Shown here piece by piece: positions 42,162 to 62,864 of a stretch of 64,000 nucleotides of DNA. A program made the position numbers and the translations under genes. Origin of the DNA: an uncultured Bacillales bacterium (GTDB lineage: Bacteria; Bacillota_I; Bacilli_A; RFN20; CAG-826); NCBI GenBank assembly GCA_905197045.1, contig CAJJXG010000006.1, positions 9,555 through 73,554 of the forward strand. The letters are read 5' to 3'. The number at the start of each line of letters is the position of its first letter. Position 1 is the first letter of the stretch. The notes beneath the pieces are model-generated. The model did not search any database. It saw only the letters and a program-made list of their open reading frames with translations, and was not told the origin of the DNA.

Positions 42162-43511
42162 ATGATTATTGGAAGAGAAACAGAAACCATCGAATTCAAA
42201 AAAAGTACCAGCGAATTAAAAGAGGCGCTTCAATCCATATCTGCTATTTTAAACAAGCATCAACATGGCGTTATTTATTTTGGTGTAAAAGACAATGGCG
42301 AAGTCGTAGGACAAAAAATTGAAAAAGATACATTAAGAGATATCTCAAATAAAATAAGAGAACAAATCAAACCAGAGTGTTTCTATAACGTTGAAAAGAG
42401 AAACGACGATGAGAATAACACTTTTATAGAAGTATCTTTTAGTGGAGAAAGAATTCCATATTCAGCTAATGGTAAATTTTATTTAAGATTTTCAGATCAA
42501 GATCGATTAATGACAAATGAGGAACTTGAAAAATTTTTTCTTAATATTCAAAAAAATTATTCTATATGGGAGAACGAAGATTCTTTTACTAGTATAAACG
42601 ATATAGATGAAGCTTTACTTGAAAAGATGATTAATAAAGGTTACGAAAACAAACGACTTCATTTTAAATATACTAATTCCTATGAAGTTTTAAAAAAGTT
42701 AGGATTAATTGCTAAAGGTAACCAAAACCTCAATAATGCAGGTAACGTATTATTTTCATCCTTAAATCCAATAACTCTTAAATTAGCCACTTTTGCGTCA
42801 GAAACAAAAGAAACATTTTTAAAACTTGAATATTTTGAAGGTAATATCTTCACTTGTATTGAAAAAGGAATTTCTTATGTTTTAAACGCAATAAATTGGA
42901 ACGTAACTTTAGATGGTTCACCTTTGAGAAAAGAAACTCCAGAGATTCCTAAAGAAGCATTAAGAGAGATTATAGTTAACGCTTTTAGTCATGCTCGTTA
43001 TAGAAGTTCGACTACTTTTGAAATTGATGTTTTTAAAGACCGTGTAACAATATATAGTCCTGGCTACTTTCCATTAGGATACACTCCTGAAGATTTTGCA
43101 TACAACCATGAAGAACCAATTATGTTGAATCCTAAGATTATTCACGTTTTATTTAAAACGTGTCAGATTGAATCTTTTGGTTATGGATTTGAAACAACTT
43201 TTAAATTATGTAAAGAATTTTCGGTACCATATAAGTACGAGAACACAAAATCAGGCTTTAAATTTATTTTTTATAGACCTTTATCATTAAAATATTCAAC
43301 TTTTGATTTAAACGATACTGAAACCAAAGTTTTAAGGCAAATTATAAAAAATTCAACAATTAAAATTAAAGAAATAGCCGCTAATATCAATAAAAGTGAG
43401 AAAACAGTATCACGTGCTCTTAAAAAATTAAAAGAAGAAAACTTTATATATCGTGAAGGCGATGATTTTAGAGGTGAATGGATTGTTAATAAGGATTTAT
43501 ATAAAAAATAA
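42162..43511 (+). CDS. AlbA_2 (Schlafen-like) + HATPase_c_4 + C-terminal wHTH protein (COG2865 family, often annotated as a 'RecG-like putative DNA-binding protein')
   Basis: 449 aa. The N-terminus GRETETIEFKKSTSELKEALQSISAILNKHQHGVIYFGVKDNGEVVGQ is the AlbA_2 signature. The central REIIVNAFSHARY motif matches HATPase_c_4. The C-terminus is an HTH (TIKIKEIAANINKSEKTVSRALKKLKEENFI). Confidence 0.8.
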   Translation: MIIGRETETIEFKKSTSELKEALQSISAILNKHQHGVIYFGVKDNGEVVGQKIEKDTLRDISNKIREQIKPECFYNVEKRNDDENNTFIEVSFSGERIPYSANGKFYLRFSDQDRLMTNEELEKFFLNIQKNYSIWENEDSFTSINDIDEALLEKMINKGYENKRLHFKYTNSYEVLKKLGLIAKGNQNLNNAGNVLFSSLNPITLKLATFASETKETFLKLEYFEGNIFTCIEKGISYVLNAINWNVTLDGSPLRKETPEIPKEALREIIVNAFSHARYRSSTTFEIDVFKDRVTIYSPGYFPLGYTPEDFAYNHEEPIMLNPKIIHVLFKTCQIESFGYGFETTFKLCKEFSVPYKYENTKSGFKFIFYRPLSLKYSTFDLNDTETKVLRQIIKNSTIKIKEIAANINKSEKTVSRALKKLKEENFIYREGDDFRGEWIVNKDLYKK

Positions 43512-43676: not shown

Positions 43677-44972
43677 TCAAGGTCTTAAACAATTAATTGG
43701 AATAATAAAGATACCTTCTTCGTTTTTATAGCAAGCTCCACTTGAAGTAATAATTGCTTTAAATTTAGGAAGTTTTGCTTTTGCTCGAACTAATTTGTCT
43801 TCAAATCTAGTAAGAGATCTAATTCCATCTTGAATATTTTCAGGACTATTAATTTTAACTTCTATCGCACCGAATTCACCATTTGGTAATTGAACAATTA
43901 TGTCGACTTCTTGACCGCTGCTATCCCTATAATGTTTTAAACTAGCGCCAATACTTTCAGCATAAACTGAGACATCTCTTACAACAAAGTCTTCAAAGAA
44001 AAGACCAAAAGATTTAATATCATTTAATAAATCATCAGGTTTAATATTAAGTGCTTCGCAAGCAATAGATGTATCAATAAAATGTCTAGTCGGAGCACAC
44101 CTTACTGCTACCGAAGATCTTAAATTGATGTTATATGAAGGCATATCATATATTAAAAATAACTTTTTCAATATAGTCTCATAATCATTAAAAGTGTTTT
44201 CGTCTAATTTGCTTCTTTCGCCAGATTCTAAAATATCATTTATCATGGTAGTTTTTTTGGCTTGTGTAGATATGTTACGAGCATAGGATTTTAAAATCAG
44301 TTTTAATAAATCTATATTTTTATTCTTGTAAAAGTCATTATATTCGTTATTCTCTCTAAATAAACCTGAATAATAATTGTCTGTAATTATCAAAGAAATG
44401 CTTTTTTCTGAACAAACGGATAAAGGCCAACCGCCACGGCAAATTAAAAAGGCAATATCAAATAAAGTAATTGGATTATCGTTTTCAAGCAAAGTTTTGA
44501 AATTATCTCCACCATGAAACAAATCTTCTATTGATACAATGCCAAAAGATTCTTCTGACTCATAAAGAGTGAATGGCTTTATATTTAAATCGACTATTCT
44601 TCCAGCACCAGAATGTAATATCTCTGAACTATTAAGTGGCATGGTGCTACCTGTTGTTAAATACTTTCCAAAAACATATTCATCATCCAAATCTTTTTTA
44701 ATTTGATTCCACACATCTGGACACCTTTGCCATTCATCAATTAAATGTGGTTTATCGCCTTCTATAGCCAATCTAGGATTTCCTTTGATAACCATTAATG
44801 TATTATTATCGCTTAAATAAGTTATCGATTTAGCATATCTTTTGCATAATGTTGTTTTGCCTGAAAATTTTGGACCATTAACTAACACACATCCAGAAGT
44901 TTTCATTTTAAGTTCAAGAACTTTTTCAATAATTCTATTTTTATATAAGCCATCTTTAATCATCATATCCAT
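43677..44972 (-). CDS. AAA+ ATPase with C-terminal DUF4143 (COG1373 family), paralog 2
   Basis: The track ORF (442 aa) starts at a TTG at 45005. The in-frame ATG at 44972 (MDMMIKDGLYKNR...) aligns better with paralog 1. Walker A VNGPKFSGKTT, Walker B HLIDEWQ. C-terminus HYRDSSGQEVDIIVQLPNGEFGAIEVK. Both paralogs end in a ...P[LI][GN]CL[KR]P tail. Confidence 0.85.
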   Translation of the reverse strand: MDMMIKDGLYKNRIIEKVLELKMKTSGCVLVNGPKFSGKTTLCKRYAKSITYLSDNNTLMVIKGNPRLAIEGDKPHLIDEWQRCPDVWNQIKKDLDDEYVFGKYLTTGSTMPLNSSEILHSGAGRIVDLNIKPFTLYESEESFGIVSIEDLFHGGDNFKTLLENDNPITLFDIAFLICRGGWPLSVCSEKSISLIITDNYYSGLFRENNEYNDFYKNKNIDLLKLILKSYARNISTQAKKTTMINDILESGERSKLDENTFNDYETILKKLFLIYDMPSYNINLRSSVAVRCAPTRHFIDTSIACEALNIKPDDLLNDIKSFGLFFEDFVVRDVSVYAESIGASLKHYRDSSGQEVDIIVQLPNGEFGAIEVKINSPENIQDGIRSLTRFEDKLVRAKAKLPKFKAIITSSGACYKNEEGIFIIPINCLRP

Positions 44973-45005
44973 ATTATAAATATCTATTTGCTTAAAAACA
45001 ATCAA

Positions 45006-48520: not shown

Positions 48521-48976
48521 CTATTTGGCCAAAAATAAGTATTTTTCAAGAAATAAATCTAAATTAACAAAATCACTTTCGTTTGGTCTATTTTTATTAA
48601 CGCCACCAAAAAGTTTTAAAGGACCAAATGTTGTAAAACCTTTAGTGTGATATACTCCAATTATTTTATTATTAAATCTCAATAACTCTTTTTTAATGCT
48701 ACTTGCAAAACTTGCTTTATCAAGGCAAGAAGTAAAAATTAAAAAGACTTTTTTGTTATTGATATTTCTTTTACTTATCAAAGAAATAATATCTTTATGG
48801 AATTCAAAGCCATAAATTCCACTAGCAAGTCCAATATAATCGTATTTAGATAAATCTAAGTTATTATCTATCTCGTCTACATTTAAAAGTTCAAAATTAT
48901 ACTTATCTTTTAAATGTTTTATTAATCGATAAGTATTTTGATGATGATATGATTTATAAATTATTAACGTTTTCAT
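48521..48976 (-). CDS. flavodoxin-like fold protein
   Basis: 151 aa. MKTLIIYKSYHHQNTYRLIK...IGLASGIYGF resembles the short flavodoxin-family (Flavodoxin_4/5) layout. It is the last gene of the operon and overlaps the upstream gene by 23 nt. Confidence 0.6.
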   Translation of the reverse strand: MKTLIIYKSYHHQNTYRLIKHLKDKYNFELLNVDEIDNNLDLSKYDYIGLASGIYGFEFHKDIISLISKRNINNKKVFLIFTSCLDKASFASSIKKELLRFNNKIIGVYHTKGFTTFGPLKLFGGVNKNRPNESDFVNLDLFLEKYLFLAK

Positions 48977-51494
48977 AATTTTTTAAATAATCCAGAGATG
49001 GTGCTTCATTAAACCACTTAGCTTTTGAGGAGTCTAATCCATAGAATTTATAGTTATTAAATCCAATTACGTTAAATGATGCTCTTAGCATTGCTACTTT
49101 CATAGTTTCATATTTTGCTTTTGGATCACGATTAAAATCATTACTATGATAAGCTTTTAAATCAAGAGAATAAGTAAATGGATCAACTTCAAGAAGAGGC
49201 GTTAAATACGATTTTAACTCTTCATTTAATACTAATTCGCTTTCATTATAACCTCCTCCTTCAATATAAAAAGGAAGATTAATCTTATTGTCTTTAAGTA
49301 ATGAATTTGAATAATTATCTAAAAGAAGTTTTTTAAGAGGTAAATAATCTTCTTCAGTTATATTAACTTCAAAATCACTTCCTAATCCACCATGAGAAAC
49401 AATTAAGGTTTCAATATCTTGACCAACTAAAGATTCATAAGTTAATTGATTTACGTCTTTCCAATCATAAAAATTAACGCCTTCTCCTATTTCAACTTTA
49501 GTTGGGAAAGAAGTTAATGCCATCTTTTCTGGATAAGCATCAGACATATAAACTCCAAGTAACATTTTAAAGACACTGGTAATGTTTGTTTCTAAAAAAC
49601 TACCTTGAGGGAGAGTATCAAGAGAAATTGCGCTTATTCCACTACTTGCAAAATTTGTATGACCAATTTTTGTTGTACCAGCATAAACTTTATTGTTATT
49701 TTCATCTACAAAACCATTTCGATTAGTTAAAGCATTAATCAAGGTATCTTTAAAGGTTATATATTCTTCTTTAGTATAATTTGGTCCGCTGATATTTAAA
49801 AATTCACCGGCTTGAGTATTCAAAATCGCTGAAAAAGTAAGCATTGAATCAGCTTTATAAGTTTTTTGAGAATAATTAGAAGTAATTGGCTCTAGATAAG
49901 AAGATTTAGTTGAAGAAAGACGTTGACCATTTTCTCCACTATATTCAACTCTTTCATCATAATTTACATGATTAAATTCATTGCTTCCGCTTCTAAAAAG
50001 AAATTCCATCGCATTTTGAATAAGTGAATTTTCAATTAAAAGATTTTTAGATGAATAACTTCTAATAACATTTTTACCATTTTCAATAATAGAATTTTTA
50101 ATAGTTACATTGTCAGCATTAATATCTAGAGTTGAACCAACGTATTCTAAATTTGATAAGTTATTTCCAAAATCACAATTTTTAAAATGAACATCATTAA
50201 TAGTGACATTATCTGAATCAATATAAACTCCACTATTATCTTGTCCATATAAAGTAAACATTGGTAAAGTATCACTCATTGAATAATTTGGATTACCAAG
50301 TGTTACAAAAGGAAGTGGACCTCGATATAAATCGTCTTTTTCTAAATAAGGAACGAGGTAAGTTTCTCCATCGATTGTGACATTTTGTCTTCCACTAGGA
50401 TATGTAAGTTCATGTAAATTAATCGTAAAACCGTTCCCATAAAAATCATCTTGAATATGAAGTCCGGCATAACGCATGATACTAGTTTTTTCTTCTCCTT
50501 CATGCTCGCCTTTATCAATTTCAGCATTCCACTTGTTTAAAAAATCATGATTATATGTTGTTTCAAAAGTGTATAAATCATCTTTAAAATCACTTATTTC
50601 ATTATTTTCATCAATTCGACCAAATAAAGCTGTATTTTTACTTTTAGCTCCTATGATATTGCCATCTTCATCAAAATTATAAGTATTTGCATAAGATTCT
50701 AAGTTTGTTCTTAAAACAATTTTATAAGGTTTATTTGCTTTGTTAGTTAAAGAAATTAAACCATCATAACTATAAGCGTTAACTCCTTCAACTAAAGTAA
50801 AATTAAAACTTGCTCCTCCAGTTGAACTATATGGATGAATGAAATTAATATAAGCTTCTCCACTTCCTAAAAATGAAGCTGTTTTACTTGTTTTATCAAA
50901 ACTTACATTACTTGAAGTTTCAATATTAATTCCATCAAGAGTTAAATTAGTTCCAATTATATCAATATTAAATTCAAGTTTAGCATCAGAGTTAACTCTT
51001 CCTTCACTTCTTGAATCGTAAGCTTCTTTAGAATCATATAAGCCCACATAATTTCTATTTTCAATATGACTTTGAGAAAAAGGAATAATTGGATTAACAA
51101 TAATTCCTCCACTATCACCAAAAATTTTGGCAGTAAATGAAGCAGGAGAGGTTGATCCTTTAACAGTTGAACAAGTAATTATCGATTCACCTTCTTTTTT
51201 AGGAACAAGATAATAATCTTCTCCTTCTTTTAAAATCTCCGCAACACTTTCATCACTACTTGACCAAACAAGTAAATTGCCTTCACTTAAAGGATAATTT
51301 TTATCATAAATTGCTTCTGCTTTTAATAATTGCTTTCCATCGCGTAAAAGAAAGCCAACTTCACCATCATATGGTAAAAGAATGCTAGTGATATTTACTT
51401 CAACCGAACGAATTACATAACTTGCTGTAACAAAAGCAAGAATTGCAATTACAAAAGGTAAAAGTAATAAAAAGAGAAAGGCTTTCTTTTTCAT
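48954..51494 (-). CDS. large secreted/anchored protein: Big_2-like domain plus right-handed parallel beta-helix repeats
   Basis: 846 aa. N-terminal signal/anchor MKKKAFLFLLLLPFVIAILAFVTASYVIRS. An Ig-like segment (LVWSSSDESVAEILKEGEDYYLVPKKEGESIITCS). PbH1-like repeats (NVTINDVHFKNCDFG..., DNVTIKNSIIENGKNVIRSYSSKNLLIENSLIQNA). Confidence 0.75.
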   Translation of the reverse strand: MKKKAFLFLLLLPFVIAILAFVTASYVIRSVEVNITSILLPYDGEVGFLLRDGKQLLKAEAIYDKNYPLSEGNLLVWSSSDESVAEILKEGEDYYLVPKKEGESIITCSTVKGSTSPASFTAKIFGDSGGIIVNPIIPFSQSHIENRNYVGLYDSKEAYDSRSEGRVNSDAKLEFNIDIIGTNLTLDGINIETSSNVSFDKTSKTASFLGSGEAYINFIHPYSSTGGASFNFTLVEGVNAYSYDGLISLTNKANKPYKIVLRTNLESYANTYNFDEDGNIIGAKSKNTALFGRIDENNEISDFKDDLYTFETTYNHDFLNKWNAEIDKGEHEGEEKTSIMRYAGLHIQDDFYGNGFTINLHELTYPSGRQNVTIDGETYLVPYLEKDDLYRGPLPFVTLGNPNYSMSDTLPMFTLYGQDNSGVYIDSDNVTINDVHFKNCDFGNNLSNLEYVGSTLDINADNVTIKNSIIENGKNVIRSYSSKNLLIENSLIQNAMEFLFRSGSNEFNHVNYDERVEYSGENGQRLSSTKSSYLEPITSNYSQKTYKADSMLTFSAILNTQAGEFLNISGPNYTKEEYITFKDTLINALTNRNGFVDENNNKVYAGTTKIGHTNFASSGISAISLDTLPQGSFLETNITSVFKMLLGVYMSDAYPEKMALTSFPTKVEIGEGVNFYDWKDVNQLTYESLVGQDIETLIVSHGGLGSDFEVNITEEDYLPLKKLLLDNYSNSLLKDNKINLPFYIEGGGYNESELVLNEELKSYLTPLLEVDPFTYSLDLKAYHSNDFNRDPKAKYETMKVAMLRASFNVIGFNNYKFYGLDSSKAKWFNEAPSLDYLKNYENVNNL

Positions 51495-53101
51495 CTGGCT
51501 TCTCCTTCATATTTCATAAAAAGTTTAGTAACGCGTGATTTAATTTTGATAATGAAAAATGAAATAACAATAAGTTCTAAAACAATTATTGATAAAAAGA
51601 AAATTACTGTTTCTAAATAAGCTTCAACAAGTAGAGATAAAAGAGCGCCTAAACTAACAGCAAAAAGAGGAAAAACAAAACTTATTAAAACGGTTAATAA
51701 ACTTGATTTATTCTTGCTTTTTAAATCGCTATATAAAGCAATAATGTTAAGTAAAATAATTGATAGCCCTCCTACTAAAATTAAAAAGGCAAAATCAATT
51801 AAACTTATTTCATTAAAAATAACTAAAGCAAGTATGGAAATAAAAAAGGAAATAAAAGATAAAATAGTTGGAACAGATATCTTGATTAAAAGTTGTTTAA
51901 AATAACTTACAGGCAAAGTTTTCATAATAATTAAAGTATTCTTCTCTTTAATTAAAGACATTGAACTAGTGGTATTAATAATAGCAATAAAAAGCATTAT
52001 TAAAATTACATCAACTGTTAAAAATATTGATGGAAAAAGAGTTGATATGTAATTTAAATTCCCTGTTCCAAATATTAAATTCACTGCAGAAATCACACTA
52101 AATACTAAAAATGGTTCTAAAATAATTAAAGATATATAAGAAAAAATTCCATCACTATTACTTAAAGCAAGATTAAATTCTTTTCTAATTAAAGCTCCTT
52201 CAATTGAAGATAATCTAATTGAAAAGATCTTATGTTTTTTTCTACTTATAAAATCATTAGCCCCTTGATAATAATTTAATAAATACTTATTAAAAGTAAA
52301 TAAAGCGATAACAAAAGAAAAGATAATAAAGCTTATAAATATTACAAAGTTAAGATTAACCTCATTTACTTTTGATAGTTCAATTATATTTTTAATTGGG
52401 TAAAGAAAACTAGAAACAGTTTTCATCACTTCAACATTATCAACTGTAAATAAAGAACCTATATCATCGTTTCTAATTAAACTAACAAATAAATTTAAAA
52501 CTCCGCCATATAGTAAAGCTAGAAGAATTAAAAAGATCATCATGACAATAAAAGAGATAATTCGATAGCGTGATACAATCTTTCTAATTTCTCTAAAAGG
52601 AATTACTAGTAAAAAAGCAAATGTTTCAATTAAAACTCCTACTCCTAAAAAAGTAAAAAACATTAAAACAAAGAAAACAAAATCTGTTTCGCTTTTAATG
52701 CCATATGCCATCATTAAAGGAAACATAGTTGAAAAAACAAAAAGTAAAGATTTAAAAAAGATATTTAAGGCTTTAGCAAAAATAATATCAAAAGAACTTG
52801 CTGGAGATGTTCCTAAAATGATTCTTTCTTTTTGGTTTTTAAAGAAAGCATTATAAGTAATTGGAACAAGCGAAAATATACCAACAATAAATAAAGCAAA
52901 CTCAATAATAATAAATAAAGCATCATTAAAATCAGTATAGACATTAACCTTATCAAAAATATTGATATATAAAAGCACTTCTAGAGTTATAAAAAGAGCA
53001 AGTAAAACAAGAGAAGATAATAAAGTAAAAATCTTCTTCATTCCTTTTTTTGCTAAAAAGGAACTCTCTTTAAATTCTTTTAAAAATAAACGAGCAATCA
53101 T
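51491..53101 (-). CDS. polytopic membrane protein, putative ABC exporter permease partner
   Basis: 536 aa with ~12-14 TM helices and no recognisable soluble domain. 4-nt overlaps with the ABC ATPase gene upstream and the beta-helix protein gene downstream. Confidence 0.6.
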   Translation of the reverse strand: MIARLFLKEFKESSFLAKKGMKKIFTLLSSLVLLALFITLEVLLYINIFDKVNVYTDFNDALFIIIEFALFIVGIFSLVPITYNAFFKNQKERIILGTSPASSFDIIFAKALNIFFKSLLFVFSTMFPLMMAYGIKSETDFVFFVLMFFTFLGVGVLIETFAFLLVIPFREIRKIVSRYRIISFIVMMIFLILLALLYGGVLNLFVSLIRNDDIGSLFTVDNVEVMKTVSSFLYPIKNIIELSKVNEVNLNFVIFISFIIFSFVIALFTFNKYLLNYYQGANDFISRKKHKIFSIRLSSIEGALIRKEFNLALSNSDGIFSYISLIILEPFLVFSVISAVNLIFGTGNLNYISTLFPSIFLTVDVILIMLFIAIINTTSSMSLIKEKNTLIIMKTLPVSYFKQLLIKISVPTILSFISFFISILALVIFNEISLIDFAFLILVGGLSIILLNIIALYSDLKSKNKSSLLTVLISFVFPLFAVSLGALLSLLVEAYLETVIFFLSIIVLELIVISFFIIKIKSRVTKLFMKYEGEAR

Positions 53102-53841
53102 TCTTCCTTCTCTTGATATAGTTTTAAGAATATCTTTTCAATACGATTTCTTAAACTTGGTTCATGTTTTAAATCATATACCTCATATATTCTTCCATCT
53201 TTAATAATCGCCACTCGATCACAAAGTTTAGAAATAAGGTCAATATTATGACTTGCTACAAAACAAGTATTACCATGTTTTACATAATCTTTCATAAGTA
53301 AAGAAAGTTCATTAGCACTCATTGCATCAAGTCCAACTGTTGGTTCATCCAAAATCCAAATTCTTGGGTTATGAATTAAAGAAGCAATTAAGCATACTTT
53401 TTGTTTCATACCATGAGAATATTCTCTAATCTCACGATATAAATCTTCTTCATTAAATTCAAACTTCTTTAATAGATAAGTTAAATTTTTAAAGAAGATT
53501 TGCGGATTTATTTGATAAATTGATGATACAAATTGAAGATATTGAATACCACTCATATCTTCATAGCATGTTGGCTCACTTGCTACATAACCAATTATCT
53601 TTTTAACTTCAATTGGCTTATCTTTAATATCTAATCCTTCAACAAATATTTCTCCACTATCAAAAAGTTTTGAACCTAAAATACATTCAATGGTTGTTGA
53701 TTTACCAACACCATTTTTACCAATAAAACCAAAAAGTTCTCCTTCATAAATCTCTAGATTAATATCAAAAAGAACCTGCTTCTTATTGTAGCTTTTATTA
53801 AGATTAACAAGTTTTATAGAGGAATTTAATGTTTCTGACAT
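53098..53841 (-). CDS. ABC transporter ATP-binding protein (ABC-2/drug-exporter type)
   Basis: The track ORF starts at a TTG (53856). The ATG at 53841 has GGAGG 9 nt upstream and overlaps the upstream TAA by 1 nt. Walker A GKNGVGKST, signature YSHGMKQK, Walker B WILDEPTVGLD, H-loop ASHN. Confidence 0.9.
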   Translation of the reverse strand: MSETLNSSIKLVNLNKSYNKKQVLFDINLEIYEGELFGFIGKNGVGKSTTIECILGSKLFDSGEIFVEGLDIKDKPIEVKKIIGYVASEPTCYEDMSGIQYLQFVSSIYQINPQIFFKNLTYLLKKFEFNEEDLYREIREYSHGMKQKVCLIASLIHNPRIWILDEPTVGLDAMSANELSLLMKDYVKHGNTCFVASHNIDLISKLCDRVAIIKDGRIYEVYDLKHEPSLRNRIEKIFLKLYQEKEE

Positions 53842-56504
53842 TATGAAAGCCTCCAAGCTGGATGGGTGTAATATGAATCACCACTTGAAACAAACTTAGC
53901 AGTTTTATTTTCGTCAACAACACTTCCATTATAAGACTTGAATCTTTTTAAATTAATAGTCATGTCTGTTGTATTAATTTTTGCAAATACACCTCGATAA
54001 AATGCAAAATTTTGTGAATTAAATTGTGCTCTGCTATCTACTACTGTAGCAATACCGGTTGATGAATTATAATTCACCCTATAAAATGTTCCATCCAGAT
54101 CATTAATACCCCTATAAAAATCTGAAATTGAACTATATTGTGCTTTATTTACATGCAGTAATTCACTGTCTAGATAATTATTAGAACTATCTGAAGGAAA
54201 ATAACCATAATAAGCATTACCAACTTGAATAATTCCGAGTCCAAAGTCATAAGTGATTTTTGAAGTTAAGTAATCATCTCTAATTCTCGTCAAATAATTG
54301 TTTCTAATATCAAATAAAACATTACCATTACTAACTAGCGGCAAGAAGAAATAATCTGTAACATTAAATCTATAGCTCGCCCCACTGTAATAAGTAATTC
54401 CAAGAATTTTATAGGCTTCTGTTAATCTATTTGGACCAGATTTAAAGGCTTTACTATAAAGCAGCACTTTATCATTCGCATTATCAATTTTATTTTTAAA
54501 ATCCTCTAAATCATAAATATTTATAGTTCCGCCTAAACTATATTTCAAGCTATCATTATTATAGTTTTGTAATTTATCTGAATCATCGAAATCATCAAAA
54601 ACGAATTTACCATAAAAATCAAAATATGCAGGTGTTTTATTAACATATGTCCAAAAGTCGGACATACCACTATATACGGTACACATTCCAGAGGAATAAC
54701 TTCCTTTAAAATCTGAATTATCAATATATTTACCAGCATCTCCAAAATCGTATAACTCATTAATAAATGTAAGCCCTGCAATTCCTACAAAAGACTGTGC
54801 TGGCACTTTTAATCCAAGACTTCCAAAACCGCTAATGCTTTGCTCATTTGTATATGAAAATCTAATTGTTGAATTTTGATCTCCATACATTGAAGACCCT
54901 GGCATGAAATTCAACTGATTAAGAATTGTTACGCTCGTTGATAAAAGATGAAAATCAAAGTATGGTGGTATAAACCAAGGGCATTTATTCATATTTACGC
55001 TTATTTCACCAAGACTCATCTTTACATTCAAATTATTCGGTAATTGAACTTCAATATCACAATTATAAGCAGTATAGATTATCTTTTGATACATCACGTT
55101 ATTGTAAGCAGTTTTACTTGAGGATTTTGATAAGGCTTCTTTCAAACTACCTTCACCAGTGTTATAAAACACATTTCTTAAAATATAAGAATCATCAGGC
55201 GAATTGCAAGTATTAATTAAATATTTTTCTTTGCCGTTAAGGTCGCTACTGCCAATCAAATTAATTTTGTTTAATGAATAATTTGAATTGTCAGCGCCCC
55301 AATCAAGTTTCATATTTCCAATAAATTTAGACCCTTTCTCGAATATAATTGGTACGTTTATATATGGGCATCGATACATTTTAAAAAAAGAATCGCTATA
55401 GTTATAATTCATAGGTGCTCCACTTTCGTGATGGTGATCTTCAACAACAAAAGTGGCAATTAAGGTTGCTCCGTTTTTCATTATAATTTTGCCAGTTTTA
55501 TTTGGTGAAGAATCAGTAATGGTACCATATACTTCGATAGTACTATTTTCAGAAACGATTAATGTGTTACCATTTAAATCTAACTCGGAATAAGGCCCGG
55601 TTATAAACCCTTGCCAATTATATTGTGAATACCCATCATTTGATCCATAAAAAGAAGTAAGGGCTCCAATTGACAACACACTAGTATTGCTAAGAATAGT
55701 ATCTCGCCCTAAAACTACTTTGCTTATGCAGTAATTTCTGCCGTTCGAACCATTTCCTGCTGTTGGCTTAAAATCGCTCACGGAACTTGTTGGATCTTCT
55801 AAGGAAATCGTTGTATCATCATTAGCTTGGTATTTTCTATAATTAGAACCAAACAATGGTTTATCGAAATTAGGAAGGTCAGCAACATACTCATCATCAT
55901 CAGATTTGAAGTTAAAAGATAAATTCAAATCGTTATAAAAGCCATTATTTAATTCTACAACTGCAGCTGGACTTGTACTTGTGTTCCCGTTTTCACAATT
56001 TTGATTGGTTTCATTAAAATTATAGGTATTGCCATTACCTTCGATAGACACACGACTATCATTAATAGTTGAATTTCCTATTGATTGATTAAAGTCATTC
56101 CCTTGAGGGGTTTGAACATAACGTGCTTCAGGTTCTAAAATAAGTTCTTTGTTTACCGTAATTTCTTTTTTAAGCGCATTATTATCATTTGGATCGTTAG
56201 GGTTGAAATAAATAGTATCTTGATCATCTTTCCAAACGTAATAATTCCCTGCGTTGTCAAACAAAAATGGTACTTCTTCAATCGATAATTTGTCATTGTT
56301 TTTGACATATATTTTCTTGATGGAATTTCCATTTGTATCGTAAAACTCAACTTTTTTGTAATTAGGGTCTTGGTTTTCACCACCAATGTTTAAATCGCCA
56401 TTAAGTCCTGTAATATTAAAATTAGCGATTATATAGTTGCCATATCCAACCCATAAAATTGAAGAGAATAAAATAAATATTAACAACAATATTCTTTTTT
56501 TCAT
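53841..56504 (-). CDS. large N/S/Y-rich secreted protein, unknown fold (probably beta-rich)
   Basis: 887 aa. N-terminal signal/anchor MKKRILLLIFILFSSILWVGYGNYIIANF. I recognise no family. Contains an HHHE run (VVEDHHHESGAP). Confidence 0.7.
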   Translation of the reverse strand: MKKRILLLIFILFSSILWVGYGNYIIANFNITGLNGDLNIGGENQDPNYKKVEFYDTNGNSIKKIYVKNNDKLSIEEVPFLFDNAGNYYVWKDDQDTIYFNPNDPNDNNALKKEITVNKELILEPEARYVQTPQGNDFNQSIGNSTINDSRVSIEGNGNTYNFNETNQNCENGNTSTSPAAVVELNNGFYNDLNLSFNFKSDDDEYVADLPNFDKPLFGSNYRKYQANDDTTISLEDPTSSVSDFKPTAGNGSNGRNYCISKVVLGRDTILSNTSVLSIGALTSFYGSNDGYSQYNWQGFITGPYSELDLNGNTLIVSENSTIEVYGTITDSSPNKTGKIIMKNGATLIATFVVEDHHHESGAPMNYNYSDSFFKMYRCPYINVPIIFEKGSKFIGNMKLDWGADNSNYSLNKINLIGSSDLNGKEKYLINTCNSPDDSYILRNVFYNTGEGSLKEALSKSSSKTAYNNVMYQKIIYTAYNCDIEVQLPNNLNVKMSLGEISVNMNKCPWFIPPYFDFHLLSTSVTILNQLNFMPGSSMYGDQNSTIRFSYTNEQSISGFGSLGLKVPAQSFVGIAGLTFINELYDFGDAGKYIDNSDFKGSYSSGMCTVYSGMSDFWTYVNKTPAYFDFYGKFVFDDFDDSDKLQNYNNDSLKYSLGGTINIYDLEDFKNKIDNANDKVLLYSKAFKSGPNRLTEAYKILGITYYSGASYRFNVTDYFFLPLVSNGNVLFDIRNNYLTRIRDDYLTSKITYDFGLGIIQVGNAYYGYFPSDSSNNYLDSELLHVNKAQYSSISDFYRGINDLDGTFYRVNYNSSTGIATVVDSRAQFNSQNFAFYRGVFAKINTTDMTINLKRFKSYNGSVVDENKTAKFVSSGDSYYTHPAWRLS

Positions 56505-56510
56505 CTTTTG

Positions 56511-57230
56511 CTACCTGTAGTCTTCAAAAATAAGTTCAACGTTTACGTTTCCAAAAGTTAAAACATTATATTCTTTTGAATAGCCAATAGATTTATCGAT
56601 TATTTCAAAATTAAAATTTAGGTTGAAATTCCAAGCAAAATCCATTTCAACTCCTCCGACGACCGTTGAATATCGGTTATCAAAATCATTATCTTCTGCG
56701 ATTCTTTGAATATAGAAGTCACCTCCTGCACTATCAGAAGAAAATGATATATGCGAATAACATGTTAAATTGTCACTATCAAACTCTAAACAATTATTTC
56801 CGCCTGATGAATATTTTTCCCCGTATTTCATTGTTAAAGAATAATCACTTCCATAACTCAAGCTTATGAAGTCATTTTTAACGTTTTCTTTTACATGATT
56901 GAATAAAGACGAAGACGTAAAAGTAAGTTTGACGCCAAGTCCAGAATTTATACTAATATTGTTAGTGTTCTCATGATATTTTTTCTGATTTATTTGAAAA
57001 ATTATTGAAAAAGTATCATTTACTATATCGCTATCATAAGTACCAATGCTTTTATTCCCATAATATGTTAAGAAATTTTGCCCTTCGCTTGAAATAGTAA
57101 TGTCATCAGGATTGATTTCAACAATTTTATCTTTATCACCATCAAAAATGTAAGCAGAAAAGCCGATGCCGATTACAGATAAAACAGCAAAAATAAAGGA
57201 AAAAACTATAAAAATTTTCTTATTCTTCAC
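56511..57230 (-). CDS. secreted protein, unknown function, SipW-type signal-like N-terminus
   Basis: 239 aa. N-terminus MKNKKIFIVFSFIFAVLSVIGIGFSAYIFDGD. 4-nt overlap with the upstream gene. Confidence 0.7.
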   Translation of the reverse strand: MKNKKIFIVFSFIFAVLSVIGIGFSAYIFDGDKDKIVEINPDDITISSEGQNFLTYYGNKSIGTYDSDIVNDTFSIIFQINQKKYHENTNNISINSGLGVKLTFTSSSLFNHVKENVKNDFISLSYGSDYSLTMKYGEKYSSGGNNCLEFDSDNLTCYSHISFSSDSAGGDFYIQRIAEDNDFDNRYSTVVGGVEMDFAWNFNLNFNFEIIDKSIGYSKEYNVLTFGNVNVELIFEDYR

Positions 57231-58363
57231 GATAAGACCTCATAATAGGCATAAAACGTTGTATCTTCAAAAATAGGCGTAAGGTCTGTAAGTCTTCCTG
57301 ATAAAGGGTTTGCAGGCCCTTCTGGGGTAGTATAATAACCTTCAAATGAATAACCTTCCATCGTGCACAATGGTATACTCGCAATATTAATAGTGCTGCC
57401 TGCTTCAACAACGATTTTCCCAATTGTTTCGCTTACAAATTTGCCACCATTAGTGTCAAAAGTTACTATACATTTTTCTGTTTTTTTGTTGTTTTCGGTT
57501 AAATTTATAACCTCAACAAAATTCGTACCATCAAAAAAATAAATTATAAAATTCTCTTGATCAAAATAATAATCGCCTTCTACCGCTTCGCTTTTAATAA
57601 TACTATTTGCAGGACCTAAACCGTAATGCCGCTTAGTTGCACGTGGCAAGCTTATAGGCTCTAAGTCCTGTGTAGTACCATCTGTATAATTAATAGTTAT
57701 ATAGTAATAATTATCAATCTGTGTACTAGTAATCGAAATAATGCCTCTTCCATCTTCACCATTTTTATATGGAATTGTAATTACAGTTTTTCCGTTATTA
57801 CCCATACTAGGATCAGAATATGTAATTGTTATAATAATATTTCCTTCATTATCTACATCTTTGTCAACACTTGAAATCCCAATTCCATCTTTTGGTTTAT
57901 CAAAAGTATTTGTTCTAATCGTATCACCATTACTAAGAGTAAAAACAAATTGATATTGTTCAGTATCTGGATCAACAACCAAAGTCGATTCAACAACACT
58001 CACCCCATTAGGAACAGTAATTGTTTCAGGAGGTACTTCATCACTTGTAAAAGTAATTGTTAAGATAGTTGAAAGTCCATCACTTGATTGAGTTGCACTA
58101 ATGTCTTTTATACCTAAGCCAGCTACACCTACTGGACCAGTTTCACCAACTGCTCCTTTAGGAATCTCAAAAGTTAAGGGTTCAACATCTGTGTCAGTAA
58201 AATACATCGTAACTAAAGTCGATCCATTTGCACTTGTTGAAGATTCTACACGGTCAATCATTAAGCCTTCACTTGTTCCGCCAAATAGTGAACACGAAGA
58301 AAGCGTTAAAGATAAAAAGAGAAATAAAGAAGAAATTATACGTTTAAATTTCATAATCATCAC
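57227..58363 (-). CDS. modular lipoprotein: short collagen-like G-X-Y run, four ~40-aa beta modules, C-terminal Listeria/Bacteroides (Flg_new) repeat
   Basis: 378 aa with lipobox LTLSS-C-S. G-X-Y run GAVGETGPVGVAGLG. Repeated modules begin G[LI]GI.[DS][IV]. The C-terminus VTFDTNGGKFVSE...EGYSFEGYYTTPEG is the Flg_new/TIGR02543 pattern. Confidence 0.75.
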   Translation of the reverse strand: MMIMKFKRIISSLFLFLSLTLSSCSLFGGTSEGLMIDRVESSTSANGSTLVTMYFTDTDVEPLTFEIPKGAVGETGPVGVAGLGIKDISATQSSDGLSTILTITFTSDEVPPETITVPNGVSVVESTLVVDPDTEQYQFVFTLSNGDTIRTNTFDKPKDGIGISSVDKDVDNEGNIIITITYSDPSMGNNGKTVITIPYKNGEDGRGIISITSTQIDNYYYITINYTDGTTQDLEPISLPRATKRHYGLGPANSIIKSEAVEGDYYFDQENFIIYFFDGTNFVEVINLTENNKKTEKCIVTFDTNGGKFVSETIGKIVVEAGSTINIASIPLCTMEGYSFEGYYTTPEGPANPLSGRLTDLTPIFEDTTFYAYYEVLS

Positions 58364-59471
58364 CTTCTAAATTAACTGCAAATATATTAAAAATCCATGC
58401 AAAAGTCCCTTCTTTTTTCTTAATTAAGGTATAGTCAGCTAAACAGAAAGGACAAGATTCATTTTCATTATCTTTTTTACAAAGTGGACAAATATTTTCT
58501 TTACTTCTTAATACAGTTTTTAAAGAATAGATAATCTCAACGATGTCTTTTATTTCTTTTATAAAGATAGAATAATCTTTATCATCGTAAGTTAAGATTA
58601 AAGCTTTTGAAAATAGATTAACTTTTAAATCAAAAATATAATCTTTTTTAAGATTAATATCTTTATTTAAAAGAGATAAGAATAACTTTCCTTCTTTTTT
58701 AAAAGAGAAAACAAAATTCTCTTTTAAAAAAGAGAGATAATTACTCTTATTAAAGATAACTACATTATCTTTATCTTTACTTAAAATTAAATATAAATCA
58801 TTAAAGATTTCATTTTTTAAATTTTCACTACTTTCTTTATGTTTACGGTAGTAAAAATAAAGATAAGAATAATCTTTATCGTTAAGTAAAATATTTGTTC
58901 CATAGACTTCATTAAAGCTTACTTTTTTAATGTATCTAAAAAAGTCTAACTTTAATAGATTAACAACTTTTCTTAAATAAATTTCTAAATTCTCTTTATA
59001 AGCGTTTTCCTCTTTAATTAAGTCGACTTCACTATTAATATAGCTTTTTAATAAAGAATATGTTCCAAACTTTCCATAACTAATTCCACTTTTTAAAAAC
59101 GGAATCTTTTCTTTTTGAAGAAGTGATAAGCCATTTTTTAAATCTTCCTCGAGTGTTAAAAGAAGGAATAATATAAAACGATTTTCATAAGTATCAATAT
59201 TTTCATCATAGCTATATTGATATAACTTTTTAGGGAAAATATTATTTCCTTCCTTTGTAAATAAACGAGCATCTTTTGTTGTTTTATTAATTAAAGATTT
59301 ATCATAGCGATGAAACTCTTCAATTCGAGTAATTTCTTCTACTCTTTTTAAATCAACTTTATAAGTAAGCGTAATATTATAAACATGCTCTAAAAGAAGA
59401 CTTATTTCATTAAATAAGTTTAGCGTTAAAGTTGAGATATTTTCTTTTTTATTTGCTCGCACTTCTTTCAC
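58344..59471 (-). CDS. DUF2357/McrC-like partner protein with a C-terminal CxxC-N10-CxxC zinc ribbon
   Basis: 375 aa. The motif IDTYENRFILFLL resembles the (D)TxENRF signature I associate with DUF2357 McrC-type proteins. A possible degenerate PD-(D/E)xK is NKDINLKKDYIFDLKV. Zinc ribbon CPLCKKDNENESCPFC (~58445-58490). The start overlaps the stop of the AAA+ gene by 1 nt. Confidence 0.55.
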   Translation of the reverse strand: MKEVRANKKENISTLTLNLFNEISLLLEHVYNITLTYKVDLKRVEEITRIEEFHRYDKSLINKTTKDARLFTKEGNNIFPKKLYQYSYDENIDTYENRFILFLLLTLEEDLKNGLSLLQKEKIPFLKSGISYGKFGTYSLLKSYINSEVDLIKEENAYKENLEIYLRKVVNLLKLDFFRYIKKVSFNEVYGTNILLNDKDYSYLYFYYRKHKESSENLKNEIFNDLYLILSKDKDNVVIFNKSNYLSFLKENFVFSFKKEGKLFLSLLNKDINLKKDYIFDLKVNLFSKALILTYDDKDYSIFIKEIKDIVEIIYSLKTVLRSKENICPLCKKDNENESCPFCLADYTLIKKKEGTFAWIFNIFAVNLEGDDYEI

Positions 59472-61288
59472 TAAATTGATCTCCTTAAGTATTTATTAAT
59501 TAAAGCTTTGGAGTATTTAAAAGAATCTAGACCAAATTCGGTGTCTAAAACTTTAATTAAGCGAGTTAAACCATTTCTTAAACTTGAATTATAGCGTGAT
59601 TCAAGTTTTCTTAAAATCTTACTTGTAAATAAAGCATCTAAACAATCAAGACTTGTTAAACCCATTGCTTCATAAATTGGAACCATTTCATCAAGTTGAC
59701 GAATAATACGATTACCAATTGTGATATCAAGTTCGTTAGAGATAAAATCTAAAACTTTTAAGAATTTATTACGTTCACTCTCTTTGAATTTATATTCTTT
59801 TTCAGCGTTTTTAAAAAGTTCATGAAGTTTTTCATAACTTAAAGAAATAGCAGTAAACTCTTTATCAAATTTAATTTCTTTTTGAGTGTTTTCAAAATCA
59901 ATAACAATTGCTCTATCAATAACTTTATCTGTAATTGTAAAAGTAGAATCATCTTTATTAGCTGTCCCAATAAAATAGGTATTAGGAGTAATAATAAGTT
60001 GACCTTTTTCTAAGTTTTCAGGAGCATCATAATCATCTGGAAGAAGCATTAAAGAAATACGACGATCTTCTTCTGGAAATTCCATAACACTTAAAAAATC
60101 AGCAAAATAATATTCAACACGGCTAATATTCATTTCATCAAGAACTACAAGATTAATACGCCCAACTTCATAACTTGCCTTATATAGATTCTCTAAAAAT
60201 GGAGTTTCATTATATTTACCAGTTAATTCATTATAAAATCCTAATAAATCTGATTTTTCTTTATATGTTACTTGAATTGCTTCAAAATAAGCTTCTTCAC
60301 CAATAAATTTAGCAAAATAACGTGGAAGCGAAGATTTACCAGTTCCACTAACACCTTCTAAAATAATGAATTTAGAAGCGTTAAGCCCTGCAATAAATTG
60401 AGCAAGTTCATGCTTGTTATAATAAAGTTTTAAAGATGTTGCAAGATAGCCTTGAAGATTATCGAGAAGATCTTTTAAAGTAATGTTTTCAGTATCGCTT
60501 ATTCTCCCACTACTTAAGTTTTGATTATCTATTGCTACTAAATTTTTAAAGACTTCTTCTTTTTTAGCTAATTCTTTTGAAAGTAAGCCACCTCCGCTAG
60601 CTCCAATTGAAGAAGCATTAACTCCATTAATAAATTGAGGAACCTTATTTAAAGAATTTACATCGCTAAAAGAGTTAGCAAGATCAGCTTTTTCTTCTTC
60701 CTCTTTCTTTTTAAGTTCTTCTTTTAATTTTTCTTTTTCTTCATCTTCCTCATTAATGCTTTTTGGTTTTCTTCTTAAGCAATAATTTAAAACTCCAATT
60801 ATTGCCCAAAATAGACCAAGTAAAACAGCGTATACTAAAAGAGCAAGTAAAAGAGCACTAAATACAAAACCAAATGTTGTATCAAGATGAGCAATTCCAC
60901 CAACCTCTCCTTGTTCGCCAAGCTGAAATAAAATCCCTAAGCCAATTGCAAGCGCGAAGCAACTTGCAAAGCTTGCACTATAATAAGCAAAAGCTTTAAT
61001 AGAATAAGTTTTTCCATTATGTTTTATTAAAAAACGACGCAAAAATAAAACTAAAACAGCAAAAATAATAATAAAAACAAGAATAAAAATAAGTAATATC
61101 CATATGCCTGAATAAGTTTCTATGCTTGGCATATTTAAAAGTTCAGCAAGACCAGCAAAAATATTATTTTTGTTCATGGCGGTGTGACTACCATCCATCC
61201 CTAAAGCTGTTAATAAAGCAACAATTACATAAAAGATGGTAAGACCTATAGCCAGCCATTCTCCACTAGATAACTTCTTTTTCATCAT
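59471..61288 (-). CDS. membrane-anchored McrB-like AAA+ (AAA_5) NTPase
   Basis: 605 aa. Residues 1-~175 contain 4-5 TM helices, followed by an E/K coiled coil. The AAA+ core has Walker A LEGVSGTGKSS, Walker B plus McrB-type continuation LVVLDEMNISRVEYYFADFLSVME, and FIGTANKDDSTFTITDKVIDRAIVIDF (compare the McrB GTMNTADRS...RRF region). Confidence 0.7.
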   Translation of the reverse strand: MMKKKLSSGEWLAIGLTIFYVIVALLTALGMDGSHTAMNKNNIFAGLAELLNMPSIETYSGIWILLIFILVFIIIFAVLVLFLRRFLIKHNGKTYSIKAFAYYSASFASCFALAIGLGILFQLGEQGEVGGIAHLDTTFGFVFSALLLALLVYAVLLGLFWAIIGVLNYCLRRKPKSINEEDEEKEKLKEELKKKEEEEKADLANSFSDVNSLNKVPQFINGVNASSIGASGGGLLSKELAKKEEVFKNLVAIDNQNLSSGRISDTENITLKDLLDNLQGYLATSLKLYYNKHELAQFIAGLNASKFIILEGVSGTGKSSLPRYFAKFIGEEAYFEAIQVTYKEKSDLLGFYNELTGKYNETPFLENLYKASYEVGRINLVVLDEMNISRVEYYFADFLSVMEFPEEDRRISLMLLPDDYDAPENLEKGQLIITPNTYFIGTANKDDSTFTITDKVIDRAIVIDFENTQKEIKFDKEFTAISLSYEKLHELFKNAEKEYKFKESERNKFLKVLDFISNELDITIGNRIIRQLDEMVPIYEAMGLTSLDCLDALFTSKILRKLESRYNSSLRNGLTRLIKVLDTEFGLDSFKYSKALINKYLRRSI

Positions 61289-62219: not shown

Positions 62220-62864
62220 TTATGCGCCTGCTCCAGCATCAACTTGAGTAATTGTAACAACAAAAGTTGTACCATTAACTGCTGTTGCAAATGCATTTAA
62301 TTCATTAAGTACAACGTTAACATCAGTACCTTCTTCGATTTTAGAATTATAAAAAGCTGCAGGATCCGTTGGATTCGTTTCTCCAAATGCACTTCCCCAA
62401 GACCAAGTTAATGGTAGATTATAGGTAAACCCAGTTTCGGTATTTCCAGATGTAAATTTATCTTTTGTTACTGTAGTTGTCTCTGGCAGTTTAATATAAT
62501 TAATAGGACTTGTAACGCCTTTACCTTCTTCTGTAACAGCAACATTATAATTAGGGATACTATCTCGATCTTTTGCCTTTACAGTAAGAGGAATATTAAT
62601 AGTTAGATTTCCATTTCCGCTAGTAGTAATTGCTCCTTTGGCAACTGGAGTAGTAGGTTGAAATAAAAGTTCTTCACTAACAGTTCCAACTGTTAAATCT
62701 ACTACCTTGTTATCAATTTCAACTGGACTTGGGTCAACATTTGCTTCGCCTTTATTTTTCCCACCAGTAATGATATAGGCCGCAAGAGCGCTACTTGTAA
62801 TAGCTGCAATGCCTAATACGATCGTACTAGCTAATACGATTTTTTTGTTTTTGTTCCTTTTCAT
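62220..62864 (-). CDS. small secreted beta-rich protein, candidate TasA/camelysin-like SipW substrate
   Basis: 214 aa. N-terminus MKRNKNKKIVLASTIVLGIAAITSSALAAYIITGG. The mature part is T/G/N/V-rich. Strong SD GGAGGGAAG. It is visibly more GC-rich than its neighbours (a weak hint of high expression) and is the first gene of the operon, directly upstream of sipW. Confidence 0.6.
   Translation of the reverse strand: MKRNKNKKIVLASTIVLGIAAITSSALAAYIITGGKNKGEANVDPSPVEIDNKVVDLTVGTVSEELLFQPTTPVAKGAITTSGNGNLTINIPLTVKAKDRDSIPNYNVAVTEEGKGVTSPINYIKLPETTTVTKDKFTSGNTETGFTYNLPLTWSWGSAFGETNPTDPAAFYNSKIEEGTDVNVVLNELNAFATAVNGTTFVVTITQVDAGAGA

Follow-up and report, generated by a model that had tools for sequence, protein, structure and literature searches.

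McrBC is the textbook modification-dependent restriction enzyme. In this study we analysed a stretch of 64,000 nucleotides (nt) from an uncultured Bacillales bacterium (contig CAJJXG010000006.1, positions 9,555 to 73,554 of the forward strand), referred to below as the window, in which two genes related to those for McrB and McrC lie inside an operon for a SipW-type signal peptidase, secreted proteins and an ATP-binding cassette (ABC) transporter. The first gene of the pair encodes a 605-amino-acid (aa) membrane-anchored AAA+ protein, a predicted GTPase of the McrB type, and the second encodes a 375-aa McrC-like partner. The closest described systems are found in the McrBC census of Bell, Koonin et al. 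(eLife 2024, PMC11090510), where a major branch is distinguished by a motif shortened from NxxD to NxD that is "usually followed by a glutamate or a second aspartate". According to the same census, most of this branch consists of coiled-coil fusions, the CoCoNuTs, the McrC homologs are often nuclease-less or inactivated and have CPxC zinc ribbons, and the partners of the CnuC type are predicted to bind RNA. Activation of the McrB hexamer takes place when the DUF2357 stalk of McrC is inserted into the ring and shifts the Nx(x)D motif (PMC11090510). The census also names CoCoPALM, NxD GTPases with transmembrane (TM) and coiled-coil parts that are linked to signal peptidases, and describes them in two sentences, with details deferred, as FtsB-like TM and coiled-coil fusions in which the coiled coils are usually present in both the McrB and the McrC homologs. 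The idea of such an association is already in the literature, and a first-pass annotation of the window, made from the sequence alone, which knew of no precedent for a membrane-anchored McrBC-like pair among secretion genes, has to be corrected on this point. In the later literature we found no follow-up paper on CoCoPALM and no accession list for the clade, nor did we find a paper joining DUF2357 and SipW.

The relationship of the 605-aa protein to McrB is seen in its AAA+ core. In an alignment with 20 homologs, down to 36% identity, the Walker A motif GVSGTGKS (G312-S319) and the Walker B motif (V382-N387) were invariant and both align to the motifs of McrB. The extension of Walker B, VLDE-N-I-R-EYYFADFLS (VLDEMN..EYYFADFLS in the window), and the segment G-T-A-N444-K-D446-D447-S-T...DKV-DR (GTANKDDST..DKVIDRA in the window) were invariant or nearly so. 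These are the McrB-type features that had been picked out by eye in the first-pass annotation, and the alignment bears them out. When the sequence of the single protein was searched against PDB, E. coli McrB was the sole significant match, with an E value of 2.6e-4 and an alignment that runs from Walker A to past sensor 1. A full-length family profile returned only TM and coiled-coil noise from PDB and a profile trimmed to the AAA+ domain was used instead; it matched three McrB constructs with E values of 1.9e-4 to 5.3e-4, the next match was dynein at 0.21, and no MoxR-type protein was matched. The best Pfam family was AAA_5 (PF07728) for the window GTPase and for all 11 homologs scanned, with a best E value of 1.8e-5. 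As used here, the term McrB-like rests on the sequence motifs, the profile match and the partner, and not on the ranking of folds. The N-K-D-D segment can also be read as NxxD and its spacing to the downstream residues is the same as in E. coli McrB; judged by the signature G-T-A-N-x-D-[DE]-S-T and by the nearest relatives, the GTPase belongs to the NxD branch of McrB.

Ahead of the AAA+ core, hydropathy predicts four TM helices (residues 12-30, 64-82, 105-123 and 146-164). The successive loops have 3, 1, 5 and 0 Lys/Arg residues, from which both the N-terminus and the C-terminus of the TM domain are predicted to be inside and the AAA+ domain therefore to be cytoplasmic; RRKPK follows the last TM helix. 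An AlphaFold2 (AF2) model of the GTPase built with 20 homologs, with a mean predicted local distance difference test score (pLDDT) of 79, has the same four long helices with a pLDDT of about 84-92, followed by a charged helix at 178-203 of low pLDDT, a disordered linker to about residue 240, and the AAA+ domain with a helical lid from about residue 270. Hydropathy and AF2 thus agree on a TM domain of four helices, where four or five had been counted at first, and the charged helix agrees with the E/K coiled coil that had been noted behind it. In the model a short helix (43-50) lies in the first outside loop, and in this loop D32 and N42 are almost invariant in the 20-homolog alignment, which suggests that the TM domain has been selected for more than hydrophobicity and is more than an anchor. 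The linker is charged and variable in the alignment and no longer than about 30-60 aa, and all TM-bearing relatives have charged linkers, of 40-140 aa. When the GTPase family was compared by hhalign with E. coli FtsB, for which an approximate sequence was used, the probability was 0.1% and no homology was found.

The partner matches the N-terminal domain of McrC, DUF2357 (PF09823), with 36.3 bits and an E value of 4.5e-9, the cut-off being 23.3, and the domain was also matched by 18 of 25 diverse partner homologs. The residues YEN (95-97) are invariant in these 25 homologs and in a set of 83. In the larger set T192-N193 and several aromatic residues are conserved too, and the zinc-ribbon cysteines 328, 331, 340 and 343 (CPxC...CxxC) are kept in 82 of the 83 proteins, that is 99% per column; several partner members also gave zinc-ribbon Pfam matches. 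The description of the second gene as a DUF2357/McrC-like zinc-ribbon protein therefore stands. What it seems to have lost is the nuclease. Residues 222-327, the region that corresponds to the PD-(D/E)xK region of McrC, contain no D/E or K column conserved at 70% or more in the 83 homologs, and none of the 25 partner members matched a nuclease Pfam domain. Because of these two results we describe the partner, on its sequence, as an McrC homolog without a nuclease active site. A degenerate PD-(D/E)xK had been considered possible in the segment KDIN...FDLKV (D272, D281-x-K283), and this candidate was rejected since these residues are kept only in a close subclade and not family-wide. The Pfam scan of the 25 members showed no RNA-binding domain (CSD, YTH, HEPN or OB). 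In the AF2 model of the partner (pLDDT 79) a beta stalk and a helical bundle are followed by seven consecutive strands (237-304), one helix and the zinc ribbon. There are long helices at 95-120, 148-173 and 199-232 which may be just the DUF2357 bundle, and no clear coiled-coil insert was seen. Foldseek of this model against PDB gave nothing significant, the top match being an integrative model of B. subtilis YdjA-YdiS (E 0.011), and E. coli McrC was matched at E 0.39. In almost all related loci with sequence at this place, a 350-480-aa open reading frame (ORF) begins within a few bases of the GTPase stop; by all-versus-all clustering the partner family is present in 82 of 84 related loci and it is always the gene directly downstream of the GTPase. 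Compared with E. coli McrBC (PDB 6hz4, 6ut6), the window pair has in common the AAA+ core with Walker A and B, the sensor-1 Nx(x)D motif, which reads MNTADRS in E. coli McrB, and a DUF2357 partner encoded directly downstream. It differs in that it has neither the DNA-binding N-terminal domain nor the PD-(D/E)xK active site, is predicted to be membrane-embedded, shows only remote similarity (about 23 bits), and is found in a context of secretion and not of restriction-modification (R-M).

An exhaustive HMMER search with the GTPase domain gave 652 clusters (50% identity) at E <= 1e-30 and 5911 at E <= 1e-10. Among the best 150 relatives the signature G-T-A-N-x-D-[DE]-S-T is almost universal, and their N-termini are of several kinds. 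No TM helix and about 400 highly charged residues are found in 62 proteins, one or two TM helices and a charged linker of about 70-85 aa in 37, four to six TM helices and a similar linker in 45, which is the type in the window, and seven to twelve TM helices in 6 (P0180, P0282, P0286, P0288, P0292 and P0294; 740-940 aa). A search for AAA_5 proteins with N-terminal TM helices had been suggested in the first-pass annotation, and three of these classes carry such helices. In the operon of a TM-less member, a superfamily-1 helicase and a 483-aa protein are encoded with the GTPase and a 596-aa DUF2357 protein. A hidden Markov model (HMM) of the window partner matched this 596-aa CoCoNuT-type McrC homolog with an E value of 2e-37, the match taking in DUF2357, the region after it and the zinc ribbon. 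CoCoNuTs (CnuB/CnuC) resemble the window pair in both proteins: the GTPase signature is the same, the partners are homologous from DUF2357 through the next region to the CPxC ribbon, and the nuclease of the window partner is lost or inactivated as in CnuC of Types II and III. On the other hand, CoCoNuT GTPases have a soluble coiled coil of about 400 aa and no TM helix, whereas the window GTPase has four TM helices and a linker of about 30-60 aa, and CoCoNuT genes sit with helicase, HEPN or other nuclease genes, none of which is found in the window operon. In a further relative with two TM helices (locus L087, 967-14806, and also L088), the GTPase gene lies between genes for LRR_5 (BspA-type) surface proteins of 2750 aa and 290 aa and its partner is a 790-aa coiled-coil protein, so that here too a member of this GTPase clade is associated with surface proteins. 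A 222-aa TM protein with a cysteine-rich tail, encoded upstream of the GTPase in L087, was considered as a possible peptidase and is not SipW-like.

The agreement with CoCoPALM is closer. Here too there is an NxD GTPase with TM and coiled-coil helices, a nuclease-less zinc-ribbon McrC partner and a signal peptidase as neighbour, and from these sequence features the system would belong to the named CoCoPALM kind, that is to McrBC derivatives of the NxD branch. There are also differences. The window GTPase has four predicted TM helices and not the FtsB-like single TM helix of the description, relatives with one or two TM helices also being known from our search. The window peptidase keeps its catalytic residues and for this reason would not be merely a pilus "assembly factor". 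Six further conserved genes are added here, and the ABC transporter, the 12-TM permease, the ~830-aa protein and the lipoprotein among them go unmentioned in the published description. The system is probably a distinct four-TM subtype of the CoCoPALM kind.

The pair is embedded in a row of ten minus-strand genes which runs from 62864 down to 48954 with ends that overlap or almost abut, in the order 214-aa secreted protein, 301-aa peptidase, 605-aa ATPase, 375-aa partner, 378-aa lipoprotein, 239-aa and 887-aa secreted proteins, ABC ATPase, 536-aa permease and 846-aa secreted protein, the gene of the last being the last conserved module gene in the window (Table 1). About 470 base pairs of non-coding DNA precede the first gene. 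The window has a G+C content of about 28% and reads cleanly in the bacterial code. The ORFs of the pair lie where the first-pass annotation had placed them, and its observation that the pair is coupled on both sides to secretion genes is borne out: the peptidase stop and the GTPase start overlap in TAATG, the GTPase and partner genes overlap by one base in TAGTG with an AGGAGA Shine-Dalgarno site upstream, and the partner and lipoprotein genes overlap by 8-20 nt. The peptidase matches TIGR02228 (archaeal/SipW-type signal peptidase I) with 57.2 bits over a cut-off of 51.85 and its Ser/His/Asp motifs GSMS, HR and GDaN are conserved in 79 homologs. It is about 110 aa longer than a typical SipW, with an extra N-terminal TM pair and a C-terminal TM helix with a charged tail. 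Upstream of SipW a family of small secreted proteins of about 250 aa is found in 74 of the 84 loci with 156 copies, about 2 per locus. In 132 of the 156 copies the signal reads K[RK]K, about 17 hydrophobic residues and [TV]GF[AS]xW[IV][IV], and the family also has a conserved WGSxFGGxNP motif. The 214-aa and 239-aa proteins of the window carry variants of this signal. In the family signal a G at position -3 and an A at position -1 would suit type I cleavage as far as the sequence tells; the 214-aa protein is a putative SipW substrate or fibre subunit and the ~250-aa proteins may be subunits of a surface structure. The arrangement recalls the tapA-sipW-tasA operons of B. subtilis, in which a SipW-type peptidase is likewise found beside small secreted proteins that share a distinctive signal peptide, and the G-F-A-x-W motif presumably resembles the G-T-F/W-A-x-F motif of TasA/CalY. 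Unlike in those operons, the small proteins of the window have no detectable TasA/Peptidase_M73 or TIGR04088 similarity: in Pfam and NCBIfam, 10 members of the ~250-aa family showed no match at E <= 1 to TasA/Peptidase_M73/camelysin or to the SipW-cognate signal TIGR04088. Profiles of the 214-aa family found no relatives, and no pilins, in PDB, and a profile of the 846-aa family found no sequence relative there. We know of no GTPase, McrC-like protein or ABC transporter in TasA systems.

The conservation of this arrangement was examined in the 84 related loci (L001-L084), at 34-66% identity. The pair is part of a module of 8-9 genes, whose common order is small secreted proteins, SipW, GTPase, partner, ABC ATPase, permease, ~830-aa protein and lipoprotein; the clade of the window departs from this order in that the lipoprotein and two more secreted proteins are relocated between the partner and the ABC gene. 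When all ORFs including 10-kb flanks were clustered all-versus-all, nine families were common to 39-82 loci, namely a seven-gene core, the ~250-aa family (74 loci) and a ~876-aa family (39 loci), and no other family was common to more than 6 loci. Of the informative loci, about 75 of 77 had SipW upstream of the pair and 70 of 71 had the ABC gene downstream of it. The ABC ATPase, the 536-aa 12-TM permease and the ~830-aa anchored protein are linked to the GTPase as tightly as SipW is, and the lipoprotein, in whose family the lipobox Cys is conserved, is present in 66-68 of the 84 loci. In four homolog loci at 66, 47, 39 and 37% identity the neighbours were the same and the flanks were different. 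The per-locus similarity among the module genes gave Spearman correlations of 0.14-0.65, which are moderate, positive and not decisive. A scan of species-representative genomes found a relative in at least 557 genomes. Most carriers are labelled as uncultured Mollicutes, Acholeplasmatales or Bacilli (Candidatus Enteromonas, Onthovivens, Scatosoma, "Staphylococcus sp. CAG:324") and some are metagenome-assembled genomes (MAGs) of Clostridia or Christensenellaceae. Seven loci (L013, L020, L026, L027, L029, L070 and L080) come from MAGs with labels that include Prevotella, Lachnospiraceae, Oscillospiraceae, Roseburia hominis or Paludibacteraceae; these contigs are probably mis-binned or mislabelled, because their gene content and similarity match those of the Bacilli/Mollicutes loci. 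Plasmid and phage collections contained no full-length GTPase homolog, the matches there being to the GTPase domain and covering at most 58% of the query; relatives of this domain are common on plasmids. A phage record, an unannotated "Bacteriophage sp." contig from human faeces (MT835511.1:40013-41200), has a GTPase-domain relative with 29% identity and an E value of 1e-40 over query residues 262-602.

A McrBC-derived system that shares an operon with SipW suggests a part of a machine for surface-protein export or assembly, and not a DNA restriction enzyme. We hold it to be the better-supported view, and a fairly probable one, that the pair is a GTP-driven, membrane-anchored McrBC derivative of the CoCoPALM kind which serves the SipW-dependent processing or assembly of surface proteins. 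The first-pass annotation had offered two readings, a membrane-tethered defence module and a McrBC chassis co-opted for the surrounding surface-protein operon. Because of the fixed order with SipW and the ABC transporter, the nuclease-less partner and the lack of a complete system in PADLOC, the second fits much better than the first, and the conservation pattern fits a fixed component of surface-protein export or assembly and not a shuffling defence cassette. In the McrB homolog a predicted membrane domain of four helices and a charged coiled-coil linker have taken the place of the DNA-reading N-terminus. The McrC homolog keeps DUF2357, the domain that in McrBC closes the pore of the hexamer and sets off GTP hydrolysis; it has lost the nuclease active site and ends in a zinc ribbon. 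A mechanism can be proposed as follows. By analogy with McrB, we infer that six GTPase subunits would form a cytoplasmic ring under the membrane, with 24 TM helices in all, and that binding of the McrC-like protein to the ring would turn on GTP hydrolysis. The coiled coil and the TM domain would then relay the energy, or a switch or timing signal, to the outside of the membrane, where SipW would cleave the signal-anchored small proteins (GFAxW[IV][IV] signals). With the large secreted protein and the lipoprotein, the cleaved proteins would be released or would build up a surface structure, and a second energy input would come from the ABC transporter. A more specific version, which is possible and which we put forward only tentatively, is a previously undescribed machine by which uncultured gut Bacilli (RF39-, Acholeplasmatales- and Onthovivens-like) put up a filament or coat on their surface. 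A restriction-enzyme-derived GTPase ring with its 24 TM helices, gated by a nuclease-less McrC, would be the cytoplasmic motor or checkpoint for SipW-dependent processing and polymerisation of a new family of small subunits with GFAxW[IV][IV] signals. If this were true, it would be functionally comparable to the type IV pilus ATPases and of independent origin. What is conserved in the genomes found by the scan, which are species-level genomes, is an arrangement in which the GTPase/activator core of McrBC has been kept, the DNA reader and the nuclease have been discarded, and the core has been set in the membrane beside a signal peptidase. If the proposed role is right, an immune motor has been recruited for envelope biogenesis, and a surface structure is to be expected in a large fraction of the gut microbiota of humans and animals that is uncultured. 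Since the published mention of CoCoPALM comes without anatomy, the gene list, topology, motifs and exceptions given here make the hypothesis testable.

Several observations weigh against the role in surface-protein processing or assembly. Since no similarity to TasA or pilins was detected in the small secreted proteins, "fibre" and "pilus" are used here as analogies only. Other observations speak for an anti-phage or abortive-infection system, in which a membrane-tethered CoCoNuT-like sensor would detect phage entry or envelope perturbation, perhaps by way of the surface proteins, and respond through its TM domain or an effector, and which we judge to be unlikely. The nearest TM-less relatives are CoCoNuT-type systems, predicted to be immune and found in operons with a helicase, but the window partner has no nuclease or other recognisable effector. 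In PADLOC, which had been proposed as a check at the outset, the GTPase matches PDC-M26A (133 bits, 3.4e-39), because the NxD GTPase is shared, but neither the partner nor the neighbours are matched except by generic ABC hits, no complete system was obtained, and PDC systems are only candidates, proposed because they lie within BREX, DISARM and type I R-M loci (guilt-by-embedding); a literature search found no paper on PDC-M26. The relatives of the GTPase domain on plasmids also speak for defence, set against which are the lack of a full-length copy in the plasmid and phage collections and the ordinary chromosome around the operon in the window. The flanks of the module differ between genomes and would fit a mobile island too, and in at least one case, a Christensenellaceae MAG (locus L083, 4522-8658), a TM-GTPase and its partner are present without SipW or ABC genes, so that the pair can exist alone. 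The partner in L083 has 790 aa and ends in a tandem repeat of about 130 aa (…SRxSxSYxxFNxGRKSVAK…KYQDTPTM…), for which no relative was found in PDB. Zinc ribbons are often nucleic-acid binders, and the zinc ribbon, taken together with the L083 pair and the variable flanks, keeps the immune reading alive. Against all of these stands the fact that in at least 80 species the pair keeps a single gene order with SipW, the ABC transporter and secreted proteins, unlike defence cassettes.

The zinc ribbon bears on a second alternative as well, a nucleic-acid-directed regulator in which the GTPase and its partner would bind RNA and, instead of acting on proteins, tether or control the operon mRNA or its translation at the membrane. 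The conserved CPxC ribbon and the homology of the partner to the CnuC-type proteins, for which RNA binding is predicted, are consistent with it, but the absence of a CSD, YTH, HEPN or OB domain from the partner is not, and the conserved four-helix TM domain with its conserved outside-loop residues would be hard to explain, which makes this a quite improbable reading. Two further results concern the tie to McrBC itself. The window GTPase stays under the gathering cut-off of PF07728, with 19.4 bits at full length and 20.8 bits for the domain alone compared to the 22 required, so that of the family check proposed at first the best-family result held and the score did not. In Foldseek the GTPase model shows no preference for McrB, which is not in the top 50, and the top ranks are taken by MCM, MoxR-type proteins (2r44, NorQ, RavA, CbbQ), dynein and BrxL; on the question of whether the ATPase is closer to McrB than to MoxR, dynein or MCM, sequence points to McrB only and fold does not. 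MCM, the MoxR-type proteins including NorQ and RavA, dynein and BrxL form one AAA+ clade with McrB. That the GTPase is a generic MoxR/AAA_5 chaperone, with a remote and functionally irrelevant DUF2357 match and no specific tie to McrBC, would agree with the Foldseek ranks, with the AAA_5 score and with the insignificant fold matches of the partner model, but it is very improbable given that the sequence profiles match McrB and no MoxR-type protein in PDB, that the N-x-D-[DE]-S-T signature and an adjacent DUF2357 partner are hallmarks of McrBC, that the relatives include bona fide GTPase and DUF2357 operons, and that MoxR ATPases work with a VWA partner, of which there is none here.

Table 1. 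Positions in the window of the operon genes and of the features of the two McrBC-related proteins (residue numbers refer to the respective protein)
Feature	Position	Strand	Basis or remark
Small secreted protein, 214 aa, first gene of the operon	62220..62864	-	Signal K-rich / hydrophobic / ...ALAAYII; ~250-aa family
SipW/archaeal-type signal peptidase I, 301 aa	61288..62193	-	TIGR02228
Membrane-anchored McrB-type (NxD branch) AAA+ GTPase, 605 aa, predicted	59471..61288	-	Motifs, profiles, AF2
GTPase, predicted N-terminal 4-TM domain, residues 8-172	60773..61267	-	Hydropathy, positive-inside rule, AF2
GTPase, predicted E/K-rich helical (coiled-coil-like) linker, residues 173-205	60674..60772	-	AF2, alignment
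GTPase, AAA+ domain and C-terminal helical lid, residues 262-605	59474..60505	-	Profile, motifs
GTPase, Walker A	60332-60355	-	
GTPase, Walker B (VLDEMN)	60128-60145	-	
GTPase, N-K-D-D signature	59948-59959	-	
McrC-like partner, 375 aa	58344..59471	-	DUF2357 and helical bundle, all-beta domain, zinc ribbon
Partner, DUF2357 match, residues 14-119	59115..59432	-	PF09823
Partner, Y95-E96-N97	59181-59189	-	Invariant
Partner, predicted seven-stranded beta domain, residues 237-304	58560..58763	-	AF2
Partner, zinc ribbon CPLC-N8-CPFC (C328, C331, C340, C343)	58443..58490	-	Conserved Cys
Lipoprotein, 378 aa, with C-terminal Flg_new (Listeria-Bacteroides repeat)	57227..58363	-	PF09479 28.3 bits; conserved lipobox Cys
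Secreted protein, 239 aa, with GFSAY[IF] signal motif	56511..57230	-	Clade-specific, 5 loci
Secreted or anchored protein, 887 aa, accessory	53841..56504	-	39 loci
ABC transporter ATPase, 252 aa, core	53098..53856	-	PF00005 87 bits; 79-81 of 84 loci
Polytopic permease, 536 aa, core	51491..53101	-	Homolog in L004 carries PF09847 12TM_1
N-terminally anchored secreted protein, 846 aa, with beta-helix-like repeats, core	48954..51494	-	72 loci

The end of the 846-aa gene is overlapped by 23 nt by a Flavodoxin_5 gene on the same strand (48521-48976). The related loci lack this gene, which probably lies downstream of the module without being related to it. Elsewhere the window has the content of an ordinary chromosome, with ppk/ppx, NUDIX genes, a two-component system, and genes for maltodextrin uptake and metabolism. 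About 4 kb from the operon, past the ppk/ppx genes, a gene for a Schlafen AlbA_2/HATPase_c_4/winged helix-turn-helix protein (42162-43511, plus strand) adjoins one for an AAA_14-DUF4143 ATPase (43677-45005, minus strand). At the other end of the window (229-6004), the gene for a fused ABC_tran-FtsX protein of 892 aa overlaps that for a 1034-aa Big_2-containing protein, and in L001 and L004 a gene for a protein of about 1070 aa, beside lgt and a Flg_new gene, accompanies the module. From these last two observations, further surface-protein genes may belong to the same regulon as the module.

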